Origin: Malacoraja senta
Lineage: Eukaryota
Assembly (NCBI GenBank): GCA_038087875.1
Contig: CM075987.1
Location: 28,274,001-28,338,000 of the forward strand
Direction: 5' to 3'
Length of the DNA: 64,000 nt
Part shown: positions 4,186-58,539 of the stretch, piece after piece
Numbering within the stretch: position 1 is the stretch's first letter
Layout: every line of letters begins with the position of its first letter
The notes under the pieces: generated by a model
The model's input: only the letters and a program-made list of their open reading frames with translations
The model's database searches: none
What the model was told of the DNA's origin: nothing
Translations under genes and position numbers: made by a program

Positions 4186-6522
4186 GTGAGTGGCCAACTA
4201 TGGAGGCTGGAGAATAACATTTTCTATAAGGGGACAGTGTGTTCCAATCTTTTGTTTCAGTTTTAATTCAGTGGAAAATGGAGAACTTATTTGATCTAGC
4301 AAACGGTTGAAAGAATAGCTGGGTTGTAAGAATATTCACAATGTTTGTCAGCTTTCAAACGTAAGATAAAGAGCGCTGAAAAACTGGGTAAGATGCAACC
4401 ATGAAGAAGCAATGGTACTATTCTCCCAGTCTGAGGTTGCCGTAAGGCAACATGACACTACTGGTAGCAAAAGGAACTCCGGATTTGATCAGCATGTTCA
4501 ATAAAGAATGAAATAAAAGTCAGTTTACAGAAGTATTCAATAGACAATAGGTGCAGGAGTAGGCCATTCGACCCTTCGAGCCAGCACCACCATTCAATGT
4601 GATCATGGCTGATCATCCCTAATCAGTACCCCGTTCCTGCCTTCTCCCTATATCCCCTGACTCCACTATTCCTGGGAGTGGGTGGCCAATATGTGGAAAA
4701 TGTTATGATAGGAAATAGAAGCGATTTATATTGATTCCTCCATGAGCATGTTTGAGTTGCCCCAATGTAGGCTTGCAAATGGGGTACCCTCCATTCACAT
4801 GATAGCATTTCAGTTAAGAATCTAATTATAAAGCCTGTACCCATAAAACTATGGAACTTTGAGATGACATTAAAAACAGAACTGATTCAGTTAGATTTAG
4901 AGAGTAAAAGCTGCCCCACACGTGACTCAGCAACACAGTTGACTAAGCAGCAATTACACTGTCAATACCAAGCTGCAGGACAGACGGTAAATGCTGGCCT
5001 TGCTAGCGAAGACAGTGTAATGAGTGTTGGAATGTATTTGGGTCTTGACTGGGAGTCCTGCTCTCTTAGTTCTTCACTAACTAGAATTATAGAGTTCAAA
5101 AGTGTTGAAGATAATGTTATGGAGTTAATGTGTAAGATAATATTCAACGGTTTTTGAACCCTATGTGAACATAGAAACTTAGGATCTCTTGACTTGGAAG
5201 GAAGTAAAATCAAAACAGAAAATGCTGAAAGCACTCAGTAGCTGAAGGCAGCACCTGTGGGAACAGAAACAGTTTTCTGTTTTAGGCCAAAGAACTTTCT
5301 TCAGAATTGGGAAAGAGAGAAGCAAGTTAGTGTGAAGTTGCCGAGAGGGTTGGGGAAGGACCTTGTCAGCAGTTTAAATCTTTCATTACTTGACTCTTCA
5401 TGATTGGTGTCTTTATACTTTTTTTCCATTTACCATGTTGCGTTGCATCGGGCAAACATAGTTGTAGTGCAACCTTTTGAACTGGAAATTTACAATTTAC
5501 CTCAGAACATAACCTTTGCTGAATAGCTGAAACAACCCAGTGGTGTCCAGTAATTAGAGTTCAACTCTGCATTGCAATATTTGTGTATGTATTCTCATTG
5601 GACATCTTTTGAAATAAATTAACCTCTTCATAAATAACAATTCCTGCAGAGTGTAATTATTTGACTGACTAGCCCATAATCATCAGCCAATCATCATTCT
5701 GACTGAATGCTGAAAGGCGATTGCTAAAGCAACTTAAGGTAACTGTATACAGGATGTTGCCCTCAACCATATCCATGTGTTGTAATGACTGGTCAACAGC
5801 TCATGACCTTCCCCAATTCCATTACATTTGGTTCTTTGGCCCTCAGTTGTACTGAGGTGGGGAACAGAAGGTGGGCAGACTGCTGGAGAGTAAATGAGAA
5901 GAGATGTGTCATAGAATCACACAGCATGGAAACGGGCCGTTCAGCCCACTGAATCCATGCTTCATCATGGACCCATCCACATCGAGTGTACTCTGACCCA
6001 CTCATTTAAGTGGAATTTTATAATTTACCCTTGGAGAGAAAGTGACTTTTTAGTTGCTCTTGCCTGTTATTGCAAAGGTGAGAACATTGTTGTACAGTGT
6101 TACTTGCTGAGTGTTTAATGAAGAAAGCTTTTTGATCTTTATCTTTCCCAATTCCATGTTTATTTTTTTAAAGCTATTTCCTTAACGAGTCCAGCGTTCT
6201 GGTCTCAATCCCCCGATCAGAAATTCTGGCTGGAATGGGCAATACTTAGTGGTATACTGACCAAACTGTATCTCCACCATATTTAGCATATGCTGCATTA
6301 GTTGGTCTTAGAAAATTGAAGAATACTCAGATTGTTTCATTCGTTCAAGTGGGCTCTATTAAGAATGTACCATTTTAAAAGAGTAAAATTGCTCAGGGGT
6401 CTGGAATGAAAGTACAGTGTGTCCAATTAATTAATGATGGTGCCCATGCATACTAGATCTAGTCCTCTTAAATGTGTATTAGTTATTTATATTTGTTAAT
6501 GTTGACTTTATACTTTTTTTAG

Positions 6523-31095: not shown

Positions 31096-39550
<8,455 letters not shown>

Positions 39551-40925: not shown

Positions 40926-43900
40926 TCAGAGACAATGGATTTGTTTAGAAGCAATCCTGGAATTCTTTCCGAATGTTGATTCAATATCAAACTTCGCTCC
41001 TGTAAAACACAAGACGATGAAGCATTGAGAGATAGTCAAGCAAAATTTTTGAGCATAAGAAACGGGAGCAGGAATAAATTAGTTGGCCCCGTGAACCCGT
41101 GCTGCTATTCAATTATATCATGACTGTTTGCAGTCTTGATCTCTGCATTACTCACTCGTTTTCCATTTGCTTGGAATCCCTTGTAGTTCAAAAAACGTTA
41201 AATCCCTGCCTTCAATATAATTCTATGACCCTGTATCCACAACACTCAATTCTCATTGTCATCTTAAATGGCAACCTCGTTCTGAGATTATGCTCCTAGT
41301 TCTAAATAACCTTCCCTAGGAGAAACATCCTCTTAGCATCCACCATGCCAACCCACTGGCCTTCCCACACCCACTCCCAGCAGTACAGCACAGGAACAGT
41401 CCTTTTGGACCACCATGTTTAAGTACGGTCGTCCTTCAATTTAACTTGAGTGAACATAGGCTCAATCATCATGTCAATTCACTCATTCTCCAGAAGTAAC
41501 TGAAAAAAGCTATTTGTCCCAATGTGCATGACAAATGATTAAGAGCACCCCAGCTAATTCTATTTTCCAGCTCTTTGTCTTGGCCTTGTACATATAACAC
41601 CAAGTGTGTACTCTGCAATCGTTTTGAGCTATATGTTCCAGATACCCAATATTTCCAGATGAATATACTATTTTAGCACCCTCTAATACTCCTTCAAATT
41701 ATCTGAAAATATAAGATTTCAGTTAACATCCCTGCCAAGGAAAATAGCTCTTTACATGTCAAACATGTTGCTATAATTAATGTAAACTACATCAAGAGTT
41801 AATCTCATTACACTTTTATCATCTTAAAAAAATATATGTAGGCATATATATGCAGTCAGACATGCCCTCTTAAGAAATCCATGTTGCTGCCCTTATTAAT
41901 CCATGCCTATTTAAATGAAAATTAACTCGTGCATTAGAGCATGGAAAATGAATGGAAAAATAATCTAATTTGAGATTTTTGGATGATTATCAGATAGGTT
42001 GAGATAATGGGTTAGGAAGTGAGAACTCTCCCTTGTTGGGGAAGACCAGAACATGTGTAATATTAAATCTGGGACTTTCAGGATTTTACAAAAATGACTA
42101 AGGAGATCTAGAGCTCCCTCAAAAGGTTTTGGAGGTTGGATCAATCAAAATGTTTGCAATTGTAATTGAGAAATATTAGGGAAATTGTCTCAAAATGGCT
42201 AAAGTTAAGAGGCAGATCAGGTGTGACAGATGGATCAGAAGCCAAATGGCCTGCTGCAGTTCCAATTTTCTTTAGTTTCTTCAAGCTGTTGGGCAAGATG
42301 ATCTCATCAAATGGTGCCAAACAACGAACTTAAATTTAGTTTTATATGAGCATGGCTGAAGACCCGTGTTCAGCTTCAAGATGTCGGCACAATAGATCTA
42401 TCAATGGCACACCCGCTCTGATCTTTGATCATTCCTTCATTTACTTGGAAAACGTCCATCAATCGGATAAAATTCAGCAAATATACATTCATCCTCAGTA
42501 AATGTTCCATGAGAAGTCAGGAAGCCATGAATACATCTGCATAGTATTTGGGCTGCTTGCAGAGCACGGGTACAGTCATAAACAAAACATACCTGGCAGG
42601 TGACCTCCGTAGTTGGGAACCATCGGTTTGTTAATGTAAATTTTACTATTAGGTTGAGGATCATCTTCACGGTAACCTCTTAGCTTGTTCCTCACAAAGT
42701 ACTGAAAAGAAAACAAAAATCATAATTGGGGCAAACTTTTCATGGCTTGAGTCACAATTCAGGCCATGATGGCACACAAAAGCTTTTTACATGACAATAA
42801 ACTACACTATTCCTATTATTGGCATGTTCTTGTACCCATCAAGGGGTATAGTAGAGGCTGCCCATGAAGGGTGTTTAGTTACTTATTGGGAGACCACTGG
42901 TGTCAAAAGAGCTGCAGAGAAGCTGGGATGTAATTGAACCCGAGAGGAGCTGAAATTCAGCCTCTTCAGCTCCATTACCATCGGACATTTAGGTTATTGG
43001 AGACCAGTGGAGGAGCGCTGGAACCAGCAGGCTTCTCAAACGAGGGAGGAGTAGTGGGTCTCCTCAGTTTTAGCCTGTGCTTTTCTGACCATGTCTCTAG
43101 ATGTAGGAAAATATCAGGTTGTGTCTCATCAGATTATGTATGTTACTTTTACTTCCTTCTCTAACTTCTTTTCTAAGGGGCTTTCTTTTCCCAACACTCT
43201 TGCACTTCACGACTCTTGCGCACTTTCTTTACTTTTCTTACTTCTATCTTTCTCTTAAAGCTCATAAAAATGTATTAAGATATAAGTGTTGTGTATTACT
43301 GTAATTTACCGTACTTCTAATAAAAATAATTTAAAAAATAAAAATAAAATAAAAAAAAGATTATGTATGTTATTGTACCGAGCTTCCAAGCCTGTGCTTC
43401 TAACAGTTCATGTGCCATCTGGCACAGGTTGAGTTTCTCATGGACATGCAACCATTATACCCAGGCTTTGCATAACAAAGTTATGGCAACCTGGCACCCC
43501 TGTGGACTGCAGGATCTAGATGCTGGTACCTTTACCCCTACTGAGCCAAATTAATCATTGGGAACTCATAAAAAATATGGAAAACCCCAACTTCCTGCCA
43601 CTGTCTCCAAGCTCACACCTGTGCTTTGGAGATGAGACTTGCAAAAAGTCTTATAGGAAACTGAAACAATATCTATTTTTAAAGCCAATGTAGGGTCAGA
43701 ATTTCAAAGACAATGTGCCCAATCATCTTTTGAGATTAGACAAGTTTAAGATGGTGAAAGGTTACTGCAGGTTGACTGCAATGCAAAGTTGAGGTTACAG
43801 AGGACCAGCCATGATGTGAAGAAATAGCAGAGCAGATTTGACGGTCTGAGTGTACTACACCAGCTCCCAATTAACATGTTTAAAGACATTGCCAGAAATT

Positions 43901-46900
43901 GCAGAGACCTGTTTGCGCTGAAACTTGTCCATGGCACTCTTCGCCCGTTCTTGGTAAGGATGTGCAAATTCGTTGGCAATACGTGGAATAAATCCAGTGT
44001 AACCTACAACAAGCAAAAAAAAGGAAAGGTTGTAACTGAACTATGTCATGAGCTGCCACTTATACTGTCCTCCTGTCCATTACAGAGGAGTTGATACTAC
44101 CAAGCACTCTGGCTGTTGTATTGTAGTTATGCACTCAGTTTGTTGGTACCTTGCTGGCCCTCCATATGGATAACATTCTGTACCCTCCTCAAATGTATTA
44201 GATATCTTGTCTGTTCCCTGTGGATTACCTTTCCTGCAAATTACCTTTCCTGGTTAATCTATGGACGATAGTCCACGGTCGCTCTCCAGTAGATGAGTCT
44301 CACTGATGATAACATTTTGCATTAAGACTATAATTTCTTTCTTGGGACATTGTAAAACAACCTAAGATTCATCTTAAATATGTAACTCAGCTATTGATGC
44401 TCAAAATAAGTAATTAACTTTTATTAGGCCTTCAAATTCAACAAAATCCCACTCTCCAAGCCACAGCCCTCCTATCTACGTCAGTCCAAAGCCCCTCATA
44501 CCCACTTCCCATCCACAGCCCTTTGTAACCTCCATCCATCCCACTGTCCCTTCTACCACCTTAACCATCCTACAATCCCTCCAATCTTCCCTCCTCCATC
44601 CAATAGCCCCTCACCATGTCCCTCAAACATACTTTATTTTGTAATACCCTCAACATCACGCAACAACTACATGCCAAAACTTCAAGGACTTCACCCATCT
44701 CTAACACTATCCTTTAAACCTGGTTATCACTGTTGAATTTCTTCTGTCATAAGAAACAGCTAATTACCCTATACTTTTTTCCTTTTCTCCATTCTGCTTT
44801 CCTTCCTAAGAAATAATTCTACTGGTCCACTTTGGGTGAAAATGTTCCTCAGACATCTTTCAACATCTGAATTAAATCACAATGTACTGGACTGAAATCA
44901 TGCAATGTGATTTGGTCATGTTTAATAGACAGATGATTGGACAAAAGGCAGAAATGAAAAAAAAAGTAAGTCAAAAGGTTTGAAGAGTTGCAAATTGTGA
45001 CGCGAGAGGAAGGAACGTAAGTGGGGTGTTTGTGTTTGGCCTCACTCTGGCAATGGAGGAGGCCCAAGACAGAAACGTCAGTATGGGAAGGGGAGTTAAA
45101 ATGTTTAGCCACCAGGAGATTCAGGAATATGTTTTGGTTAATTTGGACTTTGTCGCCTCTCTGTCTCACCGTTTTTTCAAGATTGCTTGTCACCTACCTG
45201 CGATACCTCTTCTCTGCAGTTCAGGAGGTTGGGTGGTAAAAAGGTGCTTGTCCTTATACAGATGAGTCCAGGTTATTGGATCCACATTTGCAGCTACAGG
45301 TTTCAGTGGCCTGTTCTCATTGACGGATACCAGCTAAAGATGGGCAAAAGTCACCATATGAGGCAGAGTTAATTTCACATTTATATTGCTGATGAGAGTA
45401 TCAGCACACTCTTCCTCTGTACACTGTAAATGGATCGATTGTAATTGTATTGTCGTTCTGCTGACTGGTTAGCACGCAACATAAGCTTTTCACTGTACCT
45501 CGATACACATGACAATAAACTAAACTAATTCCTGAGGTTGCCTGTAGATGGAATTGATCACTCCTTTTCTATGGCACCTCTCTCTGTTCTACTATCCAAT
45601 GTCAGCATTTCATGGCATCGGGTGTGAATGTTAACCATACAAAATTTTCAAGGGTTTATTGAGGTGGATATATGGAGGATATATATTTAAGAGGGAGTTA
45701 GATGTGGCCCTTGTGGCTAAAGGTATGGAGAGAAGGCAGGTACGGGATACTGAGTTGGATGATCATATCGAATGGCCTACTCCTGCACCTATTTTCTATG
45801 TCTATGTTTATATCTTCCCTGGCTCAGGAATTTAGAATTAGGGATCACAGTTTCAGAATAAGCAGTAGATCATTTAGGTTCTTACATGTTCCCTTGTATG
45901 GAATATTGCATAGCCAATGTTTTCATATCAGAATATTTATCCATTACTGTAATACATTATCCAATGAGCTTTAATGCTAATCTCTAATCTTGAATGCTAC
46001 TGCATGAATAGGACAGGTTTGGGTGGGACATGTTGGCAAGTGGGTCAAAGTGCGTGTTTACACACTCTTGACTATAATCTGGGTGAGACATTGGGGGAAT
46101 GCACCATCTTCTGATTTTAGCCACCCTGTGTCATCCTCAATTGTATCTAGGTTAGGTAAAGACTGCATAACTACAGCCTAAAGTTTAGTTACCCCAACAG
46201 TGGCCCATAGCCCCAATCTTTGAAGAGCTGCTTCTTTCTCCTTAGAGTTTGGCAATGAATCCTGCATTGTTGGCCCTGTCCAGCTACAAGTAAACTGGTT
46301 GCCTAAACTCACTTCATCTTTAACTCCTCCAGATAATAGGTATTGATCCCATTATTCACGGGTCTCTTCCTACATCCCCATAATATAAATATTTCCTCCA
46401 ATTTGGCCCATCAAGTCGACACCATTCAATCATGGCTGATCTATCTTTCCCTCTCAAACACCATTCTCCTGCTTTCTCCGTGTGTACGGACACACGTACG
46501 AAACACTAAACATACTAATCAAGAATCTCAGTCTCCGTGTTCAAAATATCCAATGACTTGGCCTCCACAGCCGCCTGTGGTAATGAATTCCACAGATTCA
46601 CCACCCTCTGACGAAAGAAATTCCTCCTCATCACATTTCTAAAGGTACTGTTTTATTCGGAGGCTATAGCCAGCCTCTGGTTCTAGACTCTCCCACTAGT
46701 GAAAAATTCCTCTCCACATCCATTCTATCCAGGCCTTTCACTATTTGGTAAGTAGCTTAAGTTGAATGTAAATTTTCTCCACAGTATATTGTAAAAGGTC
46801 AAGGACAAAGCATTTCTTTCCCAGTCATTTTTGTGGTGCTGCTGGCAAAGTGAGTTGAGGTTTAGTTTTGCAACTTCCCTCAACATCCCACAGTGATACC

Positions 46901-49900
46901 TTTCTTCTCCCATCCACATAGGTGATGAGCTCAGGCTCTTTCATTTTCTGTATGTATTCCATCTGGCGTCTTCGCAAGTCCAGACCTGACTCCAGGGCCT
47001 CCTTGTAGTAGCTCCCACCATATTTGAATAACTTTTGAGGGATGTAGCCTGTAAAAAGACATTGAGGGATGAGAAAACTGAGTGGTCATCTCTGCTCTAT
47101 CCTTTGCATGGGGTAGTCTTCCTTCAACTTAAGGAGAGTGAAGTACAAAGGGCTATAAATTATGTTACTGCTGTGTAAGGATCTGATTGGACCCTGTTCA
47201 AGACAGTTTTCAGTGTTGGGCACTTCCTCAGGAAGGCTTTAAAGGGTCACTGCATGAATCCACCAATATGTATCCCTTATGTATCTATGCACTGTAAATG
47301 GATCGATTGTAATCATGTATTATCTTTGTGCTGACTGGTTAGCACTCAAAAGCTTTTCACTGTACCTTGGTACACGTGACACTAAACTAAACATGCTACT
47401 GGTCAGGAAACAAGAGTGTTTAATTGTCATGCACCGGATATGAACTAGAACAATTACATTCTAATAGATAGATGGGGGAGTAGGTAGGTAGATATGCAAT
47501 GGGGTATTAATTATTCTAACTAAACTAGATATTCTTGAGCCATGATAGTTAAAAAAAAGCTATAGTCGTGCAAAGTCCGCAGTGGATCGGTGCTGAGGTA
47601 GAGTTGTGCTTAGGGTTGTACAGTGTGGTTCAAGAACCTGATGGTGGATGGAAAGAAGTTGTTCTTGACCTTAAAAGGTAATGGTTCTCAGACTTCTGTA
47701 CCTGTTTCCCAATGGTAGCAGTGAGATGATAGCATAGTGATGTGGTATGGGACTTTGATGGCATTAGCTGCCTTCACCTCCACCCTGTACACCACCTACA
47801 CCCTGGACACTTCTCCCTCAAGCTCTGCACACCTTCAATTCCATCCGTCTCCACTTTCACTTCCACCTTTATAAACCTTTCTCATCAGACTAGAAAGAAG
47901 ACTTTCAGAATGGCAGGCAGAGACTGCAAGGCTCAGTGCTGGGACTGCCGCTACTTACAATATACATTAATGATTTAGATGAAGGGATTAAGAGTAACAT
48001 TAGCAAATTTGCAGATGACACAAAGCTGGGTGGCAGTGTGAACTGTGAGGAGGATGCAGGGTGACGGACAGGTTGGGTGAGTGGGCAGATGCATGGCAGA
48101 TGCAATTTAATGTGGATAAATGTAAGGTTATCCACTTTGGTGGCAAGAACAGGAAGGCAGATTATTATCTGAATGGTGTCATGTTAGGAAAAGGGGAAGT
48201 ACAACGTGATCTGGGTGTCCTTGTGCATCAGTCACTGAAAGTAAGCATGCAGGTACAGCAGGCAGTGAAGAAAGCTAATGGCATGTTGGCCTTCATAACA
48301 AGGAGTTGAGTATAGGAGCAAAGACGTCCTTCTACAGTTGTATAGGGCCCTAGTGAGACCACGCCTGAAGTATTGTGTGCAGTTTTAGTCTCCAAATTTG
48401 AGGAAGGTCATTCTTGCTATTGAGGGAGTGCAGCGTAGGTTCACAAGGTTAATTCCCAGGATAGCGGGACAGTCATATGTTGAAAGAATGGAGCGACTGG
48501 GCTTGTATACACTGGAATTTAGAAGGATGAGGGGATCTTATTGAAACATAAGATTATTGAGGGATTGGAAATGCTGGAGGCAGAAAAAATGTTCCCGATG
48601 TTGGGGGAGTCCAGAACCAGGGACCACAGTTTAAGAATAAGGGGTAGGCCATTTAGGATGGAGATGAGAAAAAATGTTTTCACCCAGAGAGTTGTGAATC
48701 TGCCGAATTCTCCGCCTCAGAAGGCAGTGGAGGCCAATTTTCTGGATACTTTCAAGAGAGAGTTAGATAGAGCTCTTAAAGATAGCGGAGTCAAGGGACA
48801 AGGTGAGAAGGCAGGAATGGAGTACTGATTGTGGATGATCAGCCATGATCACGGTGAAAGTAGCGGTGCTGCCTCGAAGGGCCGAATGGCCTACTCTTGC
48901 GTCTATTGTCTATCCCGTTTCTCGATCAAGGGAAAGGCCATTTGTCGTCCCAATCTCCTGCTGCACTTGTATGCTGGGTCTCAATGACTTGTGTACAAGA
49001 ACCCCTAATTTCCCTTGAACACCTTCAGGATGAATGGAGGTGAATGTGAGCAATGTACATGTCAACAGGTTGATGAGTTGAGTGTATACAGGGCAATGTT
49101 TACTGAGTGAATCTGTACAAGATGTCCATGTACAAGGTGAGCATGTACAAAGTGACGAGGTGTATATGTGCAGCATATGCATATACAGGTGAGTGCAGAT
49201 ACAGGTATGTCCACACAGGGTGAGTGTACGGTAAGTTATTGTAAGTAATTATGTAAAGTGTTACTGGATGAATATGTGCAAGACAAATGCGTAAAGTGCA
49301 AGTCTGTCACAACTAGAGGATAGTTAAGGGAATGTGTACGGGGCTGAGTATGTCCAGGACAAGTGTGCACAGTGTTAATGTGTAAAAGGTGACTGAGTAC
49401 GAGTGGATGTAAGAGTACAATGTTTGTGTGTACAGGTGAGTGTAAAGAGTAAGCATATAGAAGGTGACTGTTCAGAGTGAGTGGAGATGAGTTTACACAG
49501 GCTGCCTATGTACAAAGTAATATGTACGTGGTGAATGTATGGGCAATGACCATAGAGTTGTACAGCACAGAAACTGCCTCTTCGGCCCATTACATTCACG
49601 CTGACTTCTTTACTCACTAATCTAATCCCATATTCCAAACAGTGATTGTATCTGATCCTGCTACCTCCTTTGGCAATGATGTGTACAGGGCAAGTGTGTG
49701 CGGTGGTGGTTGGGGGGGGGGGGGGGGGGTAGTAATACAGAAATACTTATGGCTTTAGAGCCAGGATGGATCGCGTTTCAGCTTGTTGAACTATCGGCCC
49801 TATCCATTACTCTGCCTGCCGCACCAGGCTTGATATTTTTGCTCCAGTCTATCAAGCATGTTTTTTTTTGTTGTATAGTTTGCCACCTATTATGTAACTG

Positions 49901-52900
49901 CTTGCATTTAGGGAAGGAGGGCATGGGGGCAATTGTTTATCTTTGCTTAACAGAGAAGAGGCGATGGGGCTATTGATGAAGAAAGCATGTGGAACATTGT
50001 AAGCATTGCCCCTCTGTCCTGTCAATTCTGCTTACCAGTATAACCAGGAACAAGTTTCTGTGGGTGGATCTGGTCAGACACATCAGGCATACAGTATTCC
50101 TCATCTTCTGGAAAACACTGTTCTGGAGGTTGTGTCGTTGGCCACAGGATCGATTGGCCGGCTCTTGACTTTTTGGGATCCTTCAGGATATCATGAGTAG
50201 TCCTTCCATAGGTCTTGCCAAACCGGAATGGGAATGTCTGGGAGTATCCTCCATATCTGCATGGGGGCAAAAGTAAATGTAATTTCACAAGCAGCTTACG
50301 GACAGTAACGCTGAACTACAGAATTAAATGGCAAATAAACAGGCGATTCGGCCCACCGTGTTCATGCCGACCATCTATTCTAATTCCATTTACCAGCACC
50401 TGGTCTGTGGCCTTCTGTGCCGTGACAATTCAAGTGCTGGTCAGGATACTCGGAATGTTGTTGGGGTACCAGCCAATCAGGCATGAAAAACTTCCAATCT
50501 CTAAACCACCTACCCCTTACCCTGAAGCTATGCCTTCATATTTCAGATACTTCTGCTTTGGGGAAATGTTTGCCATTAGCGATCAATCTTATCTTCATGA
50601 TTTTGTATACTTTAATCAAGTCCCCCACGCAGCCTCCTGCACTTGAACAAAAACAAACCCAGCGCATTCAATCTCCCCCAATCACCCAAAGCAACTAATT
50701 CCAACGTAGGTTAGGCTGCACTTGCAGTATTGTAGTTGGGCTGCACTTGCAGTATTGTGTGCGGTCCTGATCACCACATTACAGGAAAAATGTGATTAAG
50801 CTAGAGATGGTGCAATAAAGATTCACAGGGATGTTGTCTGGATTGGAGGCTTGAGTATAAGAAGAGGTTAAAATAGCTGGGTCTGTTTTCCCTGGAGCAA
50901 AGAGCCTGAGTGGCAATGTGATAGAAGTATACACAATTATGACAGGCATAGATAGGATGGATTATCAGTCTAAAAAGGACATAAATGCTGGAGTAACTCA
51001 ACAGTTCAGGAAGCATCTCTGGATGGCAGACTGCGTGTAATGTGGGGTTATCCACATTGGTAGGAAGAAGAAGGAATAGTGAGAGGTTGCAAGATGCTGT
51101 TGTACAGAGGGAGTGGTGGGTGTTTTTATTGTGAAATGATGTGTGACTACTGAAGGCTCTAATGGCCTGGAAAAGGTTTTCTTCAAGGTCATGGTGATAT
51201 TTTCCAGCATCATTCACATTTCAGAAAAAGATACTGGAGTAATTCAGCAGGTCAGGCAGCATCTCTCGACAACATGGATAGGTGACGTTTTGTGTTGTGA
51301 CCCTTCTTAGTTGAGAGAGGAAGCTGGGAGAGGGGAGGCATAGGACAAAGTCTAGCGAGTGATGGGTGGATACAGGTGAGGGATGTTTTTGATAGACATG
51401 GTTGAACAAAGGCCAAAAATGACAAAAGGTTGAGATAAGGACAAAATTGGATTTCTCGGCAACTATCTCTGTTGGATAAAGTGAATAGTGCACATGGGCA
51501 GTGATAGCTACATACAGGGTTAAATGTAACCCTGTTCAGTCTAGCCTCGTACAGCTACTGCTGAGCCTGACAGCTGTAGTTTGTATCAAGGCCGGTTTTG
51601 TGCAACCCAGGGCTAAAATATGTTAATCTCACCATTAACAAAATTGGTGTCATAAACACCAGCACCATCACAATGACCCTGAGCCCCTTCACTTTCCTCT
51701 CAAAAAGTTAAGTTTATCTTCCTCAAAGATCTGGATATCAATCTCGTCCCCTGCAACAATGCCAAATGCTGTGATCCCTCCTCAGCATTGGTGTTCACAC
51801 CACCCTGCCTGGTTTCCTTCCACTCCAGGGCAGCTGGATGGACCATACAGGCACCATTCATAGCAGTCGGAGCCCAAGAGGCTCACCCCAAAGTATCACC
51901 CAAGCGCCCGTGCTCCCATCCCCTTTAATTCATCACTGGAACATCAGTGGAGGTGGCACACTGTTCCACATCACACAGCTCCCAGCTATCTCCAACTTGC
52001 CTGCCACACACAGGCCGGTAAATCTACTCATGCAATGTTACACACTCTATCAGGTCAGTAATTATACTGATCAGTGCACATAAATACGAACAGAACTCAC
52101 TCAATGATACACACACACTCGGTAAATGCACAGTATGCATAATAGTTATATATATTCAATAACACAAACTATTTAAAACCTGTACATGTTGAGAAGAATG
52201 GGCAATTTCTGGTCCTAATGCTTCCTGAATGAGATGGAAGGAAGCGAGCAATCTGCCACAAAGTCTCGGCACTGAGGTGTTGGTAACTTGAAATGCAGAG
52301 AGGAACATTCCAGCAATTTCTCACGGAATCAGAATGGAAGAAAAATGGACAGCCATCCAGAGAAAACATTGGGAGTGAGGATGGGTGACCATAATCTGAA
52401 CCAAAGGTGTGTGTGTGTTGAGGAGGAGGCAAAGAAAGCAAGGGAATTGAGCTCAACACCTAAACCCTGACAAAGGCATGGTGTGAGCAAGTGAAAAGAC
52501 AGGGTGAGGGGTGAAGATAGGACTGAGGTGGGGAGGAAGGAGCCCATGAAGAGATACAAACTGTGGTGTCAGGTGAGGGAGTTATGCCAGTTGGGTGGGT
52601 GCAGAATAGAACACGGGCTGCAGACTGCAGGCGGGATGTAACAGGAGGCTGCCTGAGGATATCAATCATCGTCTGCAGGAGGCAACCGGAGGGTGCCCCA
52701 GCAGTAAAATGACCCAAAACAGGAGCAGAGACAGGCAATGTTACTAAGCTGGTGAGTTTGAGTTTTATTTATTGTCACGCGTACCGAGGCACAGTGAAAA
52801 GCTTTTGTTGCATGCTAAGCAGTCAGCGGAAAGACGATACATAATTACAATCGAGCCATTCACAGTGTACAGATACATGATAACATGAATAACATTTAGT

Positions 52901-53664
52901 GCAAGGTAAAGTCAGATCAAAGATTGATGGTTTCCAATGAGATAGATAGTAGCTCAGGACTGCTCTCTGGTTGTGGTAACTTGGTTCAGTTGCCTGATAA
53001 CAGTTGGGAAAAAATTGTCCCTGAATCTGGAGGTATGCATTTTCACACTTCTATACTTTTTGCCCGATAGGAGAGGGGGGAAGAGGGAGTTGCCAGGGTG
53101 TGACTCATCCTTGATTATGCTGCTGGCCTTGCCGAGGCAGCGTGAGGTATAAATTGAATCAATGGAAGGGAGGTTGGATTGTGTGATGATCTGGCTGCAT
53201 CCATAATTCTCTGCAATTTCTTGCAGTCTTGGATGGAGCTGGTCCCAAACCATGCTATGATGCATCCTGATAAAAATTATTTGTATGGCGCATCTAGAAA
53301 TTGGTGAGTTGTTGGGGACATGCTGAACTTCATAAACTTTCCTAAGAGGGGGTGAATGGGGCAGCGATGGGCAATGTTATTGAGCTGGTGAGGGGGTGAA
53401 TAGGCAAGACCTCAAAGAATGTTTGCTGCTCATCCTCAACAACTACTGAATGCAATGATGGCAAAACACGGTAGTTGTTGGAATCTTGGATGCCCAGCAG
53501 CTCCGGAAGCTTTGCTGGGCTGACTCAGTGTAAAGGAGTAATGAACGCTATAGTCCATTGTTTTATTCAACAAAGAAATGCTTCTATTCATAACCTGAGA
53601 GAGCTACTTACCCAGGTATATGATGTGGTTCTGGAGTGAAAAGATGGTGTTTCTTTGCAGCCAT
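40926..53664 (-). CDS. CIMIP2A: Ciliary microtubule inner protein 2A (FAM166A), complete 7 exons: 53664-53612, 50256-50036, 47048-46900, 45333-45198, 44003-43909, 42701-42593, 40999-40926; 278 aa
   Basis: Spliced product [38 protein letters not shown]...[16 protein letters not shown].../...[15 protein letters not shown]...[14 protein letters not shown]...[26 protein letters not shown]...CL*. All introns GT-AG, phases consistent, total 837 nt. LFTPEPHxxPGY start and GYxGxxP repeats are FAM166 hallmarks. Confidence 0.9.
45020..45112 (-). mobile_element. Penelope-like GIY-YIG C-terminal fragment
   Basis: [25 protein letters not shown]. Confidence 0.6.
47905..48912 (+). mobile_element. CR1 LINE, 5'-truncated, decayed
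   Basis: [30 protein letters not shown] motifs and CR1 3' UTR. Confidence 0.92.
52762..53340 (-). mobile_element. Rex1/Babar or L2-type LINE 3' fragment
   Basis: Minus strand [27 protein letters not shown]...RFRDNFFP. Confidence 0.75.
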
Positions 53665-53854
53665 GCTCCTAATCCAGGTATGTTATTAACTCTTGACATT
53701 TAGGAGACTTGGGGCACAACCCCTTTCCTACTGTCAATGTCAAGTAGTTACTAAGCAACCAGCTGACAGTGCCCATGACAACAGCATTGGCAGCACCGCC
53801 AGTGAGCAGGTCCTCAACTTGCTGCTTGCCATCGAAGAACATTGGGCAGGAAAA
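53665..53854. promoter_or_regulatory. Putative bidirectional promoter with RFX X-box motifs
   Basis: GTTACTAAGCAAC (53747-53759) and GTGCCCATGACAAC (53769-53782) lie between the CIMIP2A ATG (53664, -) and the ORF ATG (53855, +). Confidence 0.65.
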
Positions 53855-55048
53855 ATGATGGGCTCTTCGATCCCCTTCCGCTCCCACTGGCCAAAGATAG
53901 GTGTGGACAGCCATGGGCGATTCCTCAAACCAACAGCGGTAAACATCGGCCTGTGTGATGGCACGCGATGCCACAGGGGTCCCTGCAGCAAAAAAACTCG
54001 CACCCATCCAACCCACCGCCGCTTCATGAAGGAGAAGTACATCCCGCACGGCAGCCAGGCTTTCCTAACCCTTCTCGCTCACTACGAGGCACGGGCGATG
54101 GCACAAGCTGGCTTGGAATGCGTGGGAACGCACATCCCAACCCCAGAGGAGCAGCGCGCTCTGAAGGAAGTCCTCCAGGAAATCGAACAGGGGCCGTCAA
54201 CAGCAGCTGACCAGGCCCAGGCCGGCCAGAGTGGTCAGGAGGAGACTCGGCAGGACAGCCAAGGAACAGCCATTGCCCAGGCCCCTGTAGAGCAGCAGAT
54301 AGCACCCACCCAGGCCCCAGACTACTGCATGACACGCGATCTAAGGCATTGCATGCGAGCAACCACAGCAGGGGTGGGCTCATCAGTTTGCCCCGACACT
54401 ACCAGGTCTCCAATACCAGGGTTTCAGCCGCAGTGTCCATGTGAGATGATCACTTTGACCTATTGCCCTTGTAAGCTCATGCAGGAAGGTGAAATGGCTG
54501 GAGCTCCACAACAGATGCCACAAGATCAGCAGGAAACAGAGCCCACAGAACTAGCAGAGCAAACTTCCGCAGAACCAACAGAGGACACCAATACCGGCCC
54601 CACGCAACCAGCAGAGCCAGAAGATACAGCTCCCACAGAAGCAGCAGAAGAGGGGGAGGGTGTGGCTTCCCCTGAGCCAGCAGAAGCTGCTGATGTGGTC
54701 ACTCCTGAACCAACTGAGGAGGCAGATATGGTTTCCCCAACCACAGCAGAAGAGGCTGATGAAGCCCCTGCACCAGCAGAAGAGGCTGATGAGGCCCTTG
54801 CAGATGTGGTCTCCCCTGAATCAGCAGAAGAGGCAGATGTGATCTCCCCTGAACCAGCAGAAGAGACAGATGTGATCTCCCCTGAACCAGCAGAAGAGGC
54901 AGATGTGATCTCCCCTGAACCAGCAGAAGAGGAAGATGTGTCCACTGAACCAGCAGAGGAGACAGATATGTCCCCTGAACCAACGGAGGATGATACAGCT
55001 CTCGCAGAGACGATGGAAACACCTATCAACGAACAAGCAGAGAAGTGA
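53855..55048 (+). CDS. Uncharacterised protein, ~397 aa from the first in-frame ATG; Cys-rich segments and acidic EPAEEADVISP repeats
   Basis: Frame open from 53693 to 55048; no recognisable TE motif; about 260 non-repetitive codons; repeat length variants keep the frame. Confidence 0.6.
   Translation: MMGSSIPFRSHWPKIGVDSHGRFLKPTAVNIGLCDGTRCHRGPCSKKTRTHPTHRRFMKEKYIPHGSQAFLTLLAHYEARAMAQAGLECVGTHIPTPEEQRALKEVLQEIEQGPSTAADQAQAGQSGQEETRQDSQGTAIAQAPVEQQIAPTQAPDYCMTRDLRHCMRATTAGVGSSVCPDTTRSPIPGFQPQCPCEMITLTYCPCKLMQEGEMAGAPQQMPQDQQETEPTELAEQTSAEPTEDTNTGPTQPAEPEDTAPTEAAEEGEGVASPEPAEAADVVTPEPTEEADMVSPTTAEEADEAPAPAEEADEALADVVSPESAEEADVISPEPAEETDVISPEPAEEADVISPEPAEEEDVSTEPAEETDMSPEPTEDDTALAETMETPINEQAEK
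54640..54995 (+). repeat. Coding tandem repeat, ~33-bp unit
   Basis: GAACCAGCAGAAGAGGCAGATGTGATCTCCCCT, about 10 degenerate copies. Confidence 0.9.
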
Positions 55049-57609: not shown

Positions 57610-58056
57610 GCTGTGGTCATAGGAATCCAGCTGTGGCCACATGAATCCAGCTGTGGCCATAGGAATCCAGCTGTGGCCATTGGAACCCAGCTGTGGCCAC
57701 TGGAATCCAGCTGTGGTCTTAGGAATTCAGCTGTGGTTTTAGGAATTCAGCTGTGGCCATAGGAATCCAGCTGTGGCCATGGGAATCCAGCTGTGGTCAT
57801 AGGAAACCAGCTGTGGCCATAGGAATCCAGCTGTGTTCATAGGAAACCAGCAGTGGCCATTGGAATCCAGCTGTGGTCTTAGGAATTCAGCTGTGGTCTT
57901 AGGAATTCAGCTGTGGCCATGGTAATCCAGCTGTGGTCATAGGAATCCAGCTGTGGCCATAGGAATCCAGCTGTGGCCATAGGAATCCAGCTGTGGCCAT
58001 AGGAAACCAGCAGTGGCCATTGGAATCCAGCTGTGATGGTAATTCAGCTGTGGCCA
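57610..58056. repeat. 20-bp minisatellite, about 22 copies
   Basis: ATAGGAATCCAGCTGTGGCC repeated with variants. Confidence 0.95.
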
Positions 58057-58539
58057 TCGGCTACAGAGTGTTACTGGAGCTTAGAGTCAGCGAGATGAGA
58101 GCCTGCAGGAGTATGAACTCGTGTCCCTGGGACTTGAGAGCCCCCGTTCCACTCTCATGGTCAGTCATGCTGTATAGACTGCAGTTAACTGACTTACTGC
58201 AGGTGGTAACAGGTAACCTTTGTGCATTCTTTCAGGAAGTCAACATGGACACTGCCACCAACTGCTGGCGGTTGGGGTGTGGTGCGGACACTATCCTTGC
58301 CGACAGTCACTCTCCCTGACCATCACAGGAGAGGCAATAAAGAGCAGCAGCAGCCAGACTTAGTTCTCCCTGGCATTTTTCCCTTTGGTTAGTTACGAGA
58401 TAGTGTGGTCAGTGCCTGTTATTTATCCACACAGAACGGCAACAAAGGTCAATTCCAGTGCCATTGATATGTTGGTGAGTGGAATTTATTAGAAAATATG
58501 TTTTGCGGTGACATCTATGCAATTGGTTAAACTTACAAT

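Follow-up and report, generated by a model that had tools for sequence, protein, structure and literature searches.

The two genes on either side of a 190-bp spacer in the skate genome are best explained, we propose, by an RFX-driven bidirectional germ-cell promoter serving FAM166A in one direction and a shark-and-ray gene in the other, a reading to which we assign a probability of about 0.55. The window analyzed is a stretch of 64,000 nucleotides from Malacoraja senta (contig CM075987.1, positions 28,274,001 to 28,338,000 of the forward strand), and all coordinates below refer to it. In the mechanism that we propose, the spacer would be a compact, CpG-poor promoter used in male germ cells, where an RFX dimer (RFX2/RFX3 type) would bind one or both of two X-boxes and turn on divergent transcription, so that the two genes would be expressed together in the testis. 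The sequence-only reading that preceded this analysis had inferred that one RFX module drives both genes, and this receives partial support from the identity of the CIMIP2A gene, a real partner gene, a long-kept adjacency and motif scores above chance. The minus direction would yield FAM166A/CIMIP2A, one of the microtubule inner proteins in the sperm axoneme. The plus direction would yield the product of an intronless gene, predicted to be mostly disordered and Cys- and Glu/Pro-rich; its most likely role is a structural one in the sperm tail or the spermatid. Box 1 would be the likelier long-lived site and box 2 an accessory that may sit at or just within the 5' end of the plus-strand transcript. 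We are quite confident that RFX acts on FAM166A through at least one of the boxes, and consider it likely that both genes start within the spacer; that both boxes work is possible, at a little under even odds. The elements of the spacer are as follows.

53665..53854, no strand assigned: spacer, candidate bidirectional promoter (48% GC, 2 CpG in its 190 bp, no TATA match)
53747..53759, no strand assigned: X-box 1, GTTACTAAGCAAC, a 13-bp near-palindrome (10/13 positions) with a 1-nt spacer, 83 bp from the FAM166A ATG
53760..53765, no strand assigned: palindromic E-box CAGCTG, abutting box 1 and unchanged in the two fully listed relatives (X3 and X7, below)
53769..53782, plus strand: X-box 2, GTGCCCATGACAAC, 14 bp with an AT spacer and mismatches at positions 3, 4 and 10

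The spacer is bounded by the ATG of the minus-strand gene (53664) and that of the plus-strand gene (53855), occurs in one copy only in the 64-kb window, and contains no tandem repeat. The sequence-only reading had described two RFX motifs near the midpoint of the spacer: both are present, 9 bp apart, and the center of the module they form (53764.5) is 5 bp off the center of the spacer (53759.5). By its base composition the spacer is not a CpG island, a feature that is usual for mammalian housekeeping gene pairs and not required of bidirectional promoters. Measured on start codons, the 5' ends of the two opposite-strand genes are less than 1 kb apart, both frames are intact and both have homologues, which makes the pair head to head; such an arrangement is found in about 10% of genes (PMC4089025, excerpt). 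The E-box beside box 1 may be a chance occurrence. A splice-donor-like CAG/GTATGT on the plus strand (53675-53684, near 53679) could give the partner gene a spliced leader and is probably due to chance.

The minus-strand gene consists of seven coding exons.

53612..53664, minus strand: FAM166A/CIMIP2A coding exon 1, with the start codon at 53664
50036..50256, minus strand: exon 2, matching PF10629 at 25.7 bits (cutoff 21.6)
46900..47048, minus strand: exon 3
45198..45333, minus strand: exon 4
43909..44003, minus strand: exon 5
42593..42701, minus strand: exon 6
40926..40999, minus strand: exon 7, to the stop

Together these exons, which run from 53664 to 40926, give an intact frame of 278 aa, free of internal stops and with AG/GT at the splice sites; exon 2 is 100% identical to a Leucoraja model. 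The start Met is common to seven of eight aligned FAM166A orthologues (the remaining one has one extra Met), and inspection by eye for traces of the spacer in N-terminally longer FAM166A models found that 0/8 models map to it. Membership of the FAM166/CIMIP2 family follows from the PF10629 match above cutoff and from three PGY/AGY-type motifs and one PNYGG; a family of PYG-repeat proteins has been described (PMC10973386, excerpt). Exon 2 aligns with residues 20-63 of mammalian FAM166A PDB chains, and because the best PDB match is a chain named FAM166B, the PDB search alone does not decide between FAM166A and FAM166B. Neighborhood and annotation assign the gene to FAM166A: all eight representatives are named FAM166A or CIMIP2A-like (two cluster members are named 2B-like), and two tandem beta-tubulin genes precede it (6523-28308 and 31096-39550, both on the plus strand). 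The intact frame, the domain, the orthologue names and the beta-tubulin neighborhood thus agree with the earlier identification of this gene as CIMIP2A. In mammalian sperm, FAM166B is replaced by FAM166A as a doublet inner protein (bioRxiv 2022.09.29.510157, excerpt). The first beta-tubulin gene has about 20 kb rich in retrotransposon remnants between the early exons found and its last exon, and X-box-like sites lie at 4922 and 5720, near its 5' part.

On the other side of the spacer is an open reading frame that the sequence-only reading had left as unknown.

53855..55048, plus strand: partner ORF, single exon, 397 aa, with a conserved N-terminal block, a Cys motif and an acidic repeat tail
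53855..54184, plus strand: conserved N-terminal 110 residues with invariant blocks, 55-65% identical to four shark/ray proteins
54434..54472, plus strand: Cys-rich motif (residues 194-206) with four invariant Cys
54800..54982, plus strand: 33-bp coding tandem repeat, 5.7 copies, in the Glu/Pro/Ala-rich tail

This ORF is a real gene, with homologues in shark and ray species, indels that keep the frame, and a long-kept adjacency to FAM166A. The homologues are from Narcine (57% identity), Scyliorhinus (44%) and Chiloscyllium (42%), and the shark models start at the same Met-Met. Among the indels seen in four related species, all four inside the ORF keep the frame, as against 0/4 outside it; the pN/pS ratio is 0.52 over 22 listed sites, and constraint on the protein is therefore modest. 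In the sequences searched, the family is found only in sharks and rays. A further homologue search gave three matches among 7,860 candidates, all within the same shark/ray species, and a profile search of 1.84 billion representatives returned two true relatives together with five weak matches, which were dropped as unrelated repeat proteins. No Pfam family, PDB chain or usable ESM Atlas relative of the partner ORF was found, and no mammalian relative appeared in the Pfam and homologue searches. Descent as a diverged FAM166 copy was considered and rejected (hhalign probability against FAM166A 0.1%). An AlphaFold model built on a four-row alignment (mean pLDDT 41.6, pTM 0.17) is unusable. Public models of the partner gene were found in four species and of FAM166A in at least 14; no partner model was found for skates and several sharks with an annotated FAM166A, which suggests an annotation gap.

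The two genes are also adjacent elsewhere. Their accessions are consecutive in S. torazame (XP_072343870/871), S. canicula (XP_038637393/394) and C. punctatum (GCC20186/20187), and in Narcine they are near each other, on a contig of the same length for both, and not consecutive (that is, consecutive in three of four species); accession order is evidence of neighborhood and says nothing on the orientation or distance of the pair. It is therefore probable that FAM166A and the partner gene have lain side by side ever since the shark-ray split, more than 250 million years ago.

The two motifs differ in how they resemble an X-box. The sequence-only reading had treated them as twin GTTRCY-N-RGYAAC boxes: this holds for box 1, the sole consensus site in the 64 kb, and fails for box 2, which does not match. 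Box 1 fits the Emery consensus with a 1-nt spacer on both strands, and box 2 fails even the relaxed Emery consensus. A scan with RFX matrices, which had been suggested as a check, gives the opposite order: with JASPAR RFX2 MA0600.1, box 2 ranks first among 127,964 strand-positions of the window (14.9 bits, relative score 0.872), while box 1 ranks 74th with a relative score of 0.772, below the usual threshold of 80% (PMC5838959, whose supplement supplied the JASPAR count matrices). Consensus and matrix favor different boxes, and each box fails the other's test. Given this first rank, box 2 is not read here as a merely degenerate X-box. With a 13-bp matrix derived in this analysis by removing one spacer column from the 14-bp RFX2 matrix, box 1 ranks second among 127,976 positions at 14.2 bits (third if the other spacer column is removed), and with the RFX5 half-site matrix it ranks tenth among 127,972. 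Among validated human X-boxes (PMC5838959 Table S5), that of IL5RA has a 1-nt spacer, that of COL1A2 lies downstream of the start, at +8, and MAP1A has two close together, at +38 and +80.

The geometry of the module is compact. The box centers are 22.5 bp apart, about two helical turns, a distance that may have some meaning for RFX, and each box is at most about 120 bp from both start codons; the end of box 2 is 72 bases before the partner ATG, and its own center is an ATG. RFX2 sites concentrate near start sites (PMC4498915, excerpt), and the two boxes would lie within 500 bp of transcription start if there is no upstream non-coding exon.

Against a null model of 20,000 dinucleotide shuffles of the 190-bp spacer, the score of box 2 is attained in 151/20,000, that of box 1 in 153/20,000 and both together in 0/20,000, and at least 12 bits are reached by one site in 869/20,000 and by two sites in 14/20,000; since these thresholds were post hoc and the spacer was picked because its motifs had been noticed, with the choice of motif and place uncorrected, true significance lies below these figures. 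The real 64-kb window has 10 sites of at least 12 bits, and the sole other pair within 190 bp sits in a 20-bp tandem repeat. The top 13-bp X-box-like site of the window (52989-53001, 16.8 bits) scores above box 1 and is located in intron 1 of FAM166A within a retrotransposon-like coding remnant (the family resemblance was judged by eye), so high X-box scores also occur without a promoter role; if this remnant is common, it would scatter X-box look-alikes across the genome. The units of two tandem repeats, at 31700-31980 (within intron 1 of the second beta-tubulin gene) and at 57610-58057, score as weak RFX sites.

The frequency of single sites in the shuffles bears on a rival explanation, in which one site works: box 1 (or box 2) would be the RFX element of FAM166A, the other box would be a chance or decaying match, and the partner gene would be transcribed from the same open region without an X-box of its own. 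A single site of 12 bits or more arises in the 869 shuffles given above, and in mouse ependymal cells most co-occupied promoters have one site (PMC7498320, excerpt); against this, box 2 is the top RFX2 match of the entire window and no shuffle reproduced both scores together. We consider this explanation rather unlikely, and comparison with other species provides evidence on both of its sides.

Contigs of four related species (X3, X7, X11 and X18), from four of 24 listed runs, were aligned over 53400-54600, with 22-33 substitutions in 1.2 kb, and the 36-bp module (53747-53782) has no change among the listed substitutions, which place all 22 in X3 and all 24 in X7 and leave 2/27 unplaced in X11 and 11/33 in X18. 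Neither box is altered in X3 or X7, the two fully listed relatives, which argues against a decaying second site; this is a weak test, as the FAM166A intron, with 11 changed sites in 211 bp, predicts just 1.4-1.9 changes for the module, and finding none therefore has a P of 0.15-0.25. Across the whole spacer, 4 sites changed in 190 bp as compared with the intron's 11 in 211 bp (Fisher p 0.12). Conservation of the boxes among close relatives is thus compatible with constraint and too low in power to show it.

A more distant comparison, with Narcine, speaks against box 2. In the Narcine partner model the protein is extended N-terminally by 27 residues, and this extension aligns with the window from the central ATG of box 2 onward if one base is skipped; 19/28 residues are identical, and the first 10 residues fit this place best among 127,940. 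The third residue of the extension is Lys, where the window reads Thr; as the Lys codon covers the last two bases of box 2 in Narcine, the final C of the box, a near-invariant base, is A there, a change that alone takes the score from 13.8 to 6.0 bits (a cost of 7.8 bits). The ATG of box 2 is in frame in the Narcine model, of which it is the annotated start, and out of frame in skates, where it opens a short reading frame.

53775..53858, plus strand: upstream ORF of 27 codons, out of frame, with its ATG in box 2, its TGA overlapping the main ATG, and a weak Kozak context

If one site works and that site is box 1, box 2 could be a by-product of this upstream ATG (CC-ATG context) in the 5' leader of the partner. 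An opposite-strand X-box of up to 15.6 bits is possible at the position of box 2 in Narcine, depending on the bases of its 5' half. The upstream ORF is of consequence only for an mRNA whose 5' end lies upstream of 53775. That the 1-nt leader difference from Narcine is an assembly error was rejected, as there is no indel at this point in 4/4 related species. More speculatively, the intronless orphan gene may have arisen beside FAM166A in the shark/ray ancestor, captured the far side of the RFX promoter and stayed, encoding an elasmobranch sperm-tail structural protein, and the ATG of box 2 could switch translation, serving as an in-frame start in Narcine and opening an overlapping upstream ORF that inhibits the main frame in skates; we regard this history in full as doubtful.

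Evidence on the RFX dependence of FAM166A comes from mouse. Loss of Rfx2 lowers Fam166a about 2.5-fold in P30 testis (logFC -1.30, p 3.1e-6; PMC4498915 Table S1). The supplement of the same study lists no RFX2 ChIP peak for it at P21 and lists one for Tubb4b, so the Rfx2 dependence of Fam166a may be indirect. Fam166b is down in RFX-deficient ependymal cells and present in the promoter-peak table (PMC7498320 supplement, excerpt). Our search of Creative Commons PMC papers and bioRxiv found no title on this locus and no paper on FAM166A with RFX2; one probable bidirectional promoter, for Cep290, is mentioned in bioRxiv 085571 (excerpt).

The missing mouse peak counts in favor of a reading in which the boxes are not the drivers, with the genes starting elsewhere or responding to other germ-cell factors (CREM, A-MYB or SOX30 types) and RFX acting indirectly, and the donor-like CAG/GTATGT near 53679 would permit a spliced partner leader. 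We find this improbable. The two-site shuffle statistics count against it, a search of 53601-53900 with short sequence patterns turned up neither an exact CRE half-site nor a MYB or SOX core, a forkhead site or a GC box, and reading the spacer by eye we saw no clear pyrimidine-rich acceptor ahead of either ATG.

Likewise improbable is a division of labor, with one box per direction, or one box activating while the other represses or tunes, such that the two genes would share DNA and not a module. Each gene does have its own nearest box, box 1 at 83 bp from FAM166A and box 2 at 72 bp from the partner, and in the C. elegans gene F25B4.2 the proximal X-box activates and the distal one represses (PMC3245922, excerpt); in the skate, however, just 9 bp separate the boxes, and neither is more than about 120 bp from either start codon.

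The name given to the Narcine homologue of the partner, fibrous sheath CABYR-binding protein (FSCB), offers a first comparison with known systems. FSCB has a long Glu/Pro/Ala-rich repeat tail, and so does the partner; no FSCB sequence was among the matches to the N-terminal part of the partner in three homologue searches, and the label probably reflects low-complexity similarity. Human STPG3, which we take to be head to head with FAM166A, provides a second. The order of genes at human 9q34.3 is TUBB4B, FAM166A, C9orf173 (STPG3) and COBRA1 (PMC4074351): beta-tubulin genes followed by FAM166A are found in the skate window as well, but where STPG3 comes next in human, the next gene in the skate is the partner ORF, which gave no mammalian match in the Pfam and homologue searches.

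With respect to regulation, the spacer, as a candidate RFX target, resembles the direct RFX2/RFX3 targets of cilia and spermatids (PMC4498915, PMC7498320, PMC5838959): a site that scores well on the matrix lies no more than about 120 bp from the ATG of a ciliary or flagellar gene, and the mouse orthologue of this gene depends on Rfx2. It differs from them in that mouse Fam166a is not listed as bound, while Fam166b is in a promoter-peak table. Two close X-boxes in one promoter are also found in MAP1A (PMC5838959) and in F25B4.2 (double X-box; PMC3245922, excerpt), whereas the skate boxes, 13 and 14 bp long and 9 bp apart, stand between two divergent genes. A likeness in arrangement is seen in the PLCZ1/CAPZA3 promoter, a testis bidirectional promoter of back-to-back genes, one of which may, by the authors' proposal, be a retrogene that inserted there; an RFX-family site is predicted in the region that the two share (PMC4834118, excerpt). 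That pair consists of other genes, its RFX4 site is a software prediction, and the skate partner has no known family.

RFX control of ciliary and sperm-tail genes, paired X-boxes and testis bidirectional promoters are all already known, and the skate promoter would therefore extend a known rule to cartilaginous fish; the newer part is the unnamed partner gene. The promoter marks this uncharacterized shark-and-ray gene as a candidate sperm protein, and its family is the part worth following: if the proposed reading is true, it would illustrate cleanly how a gene restricted to one lineage can come to be expressed from an old promoter.
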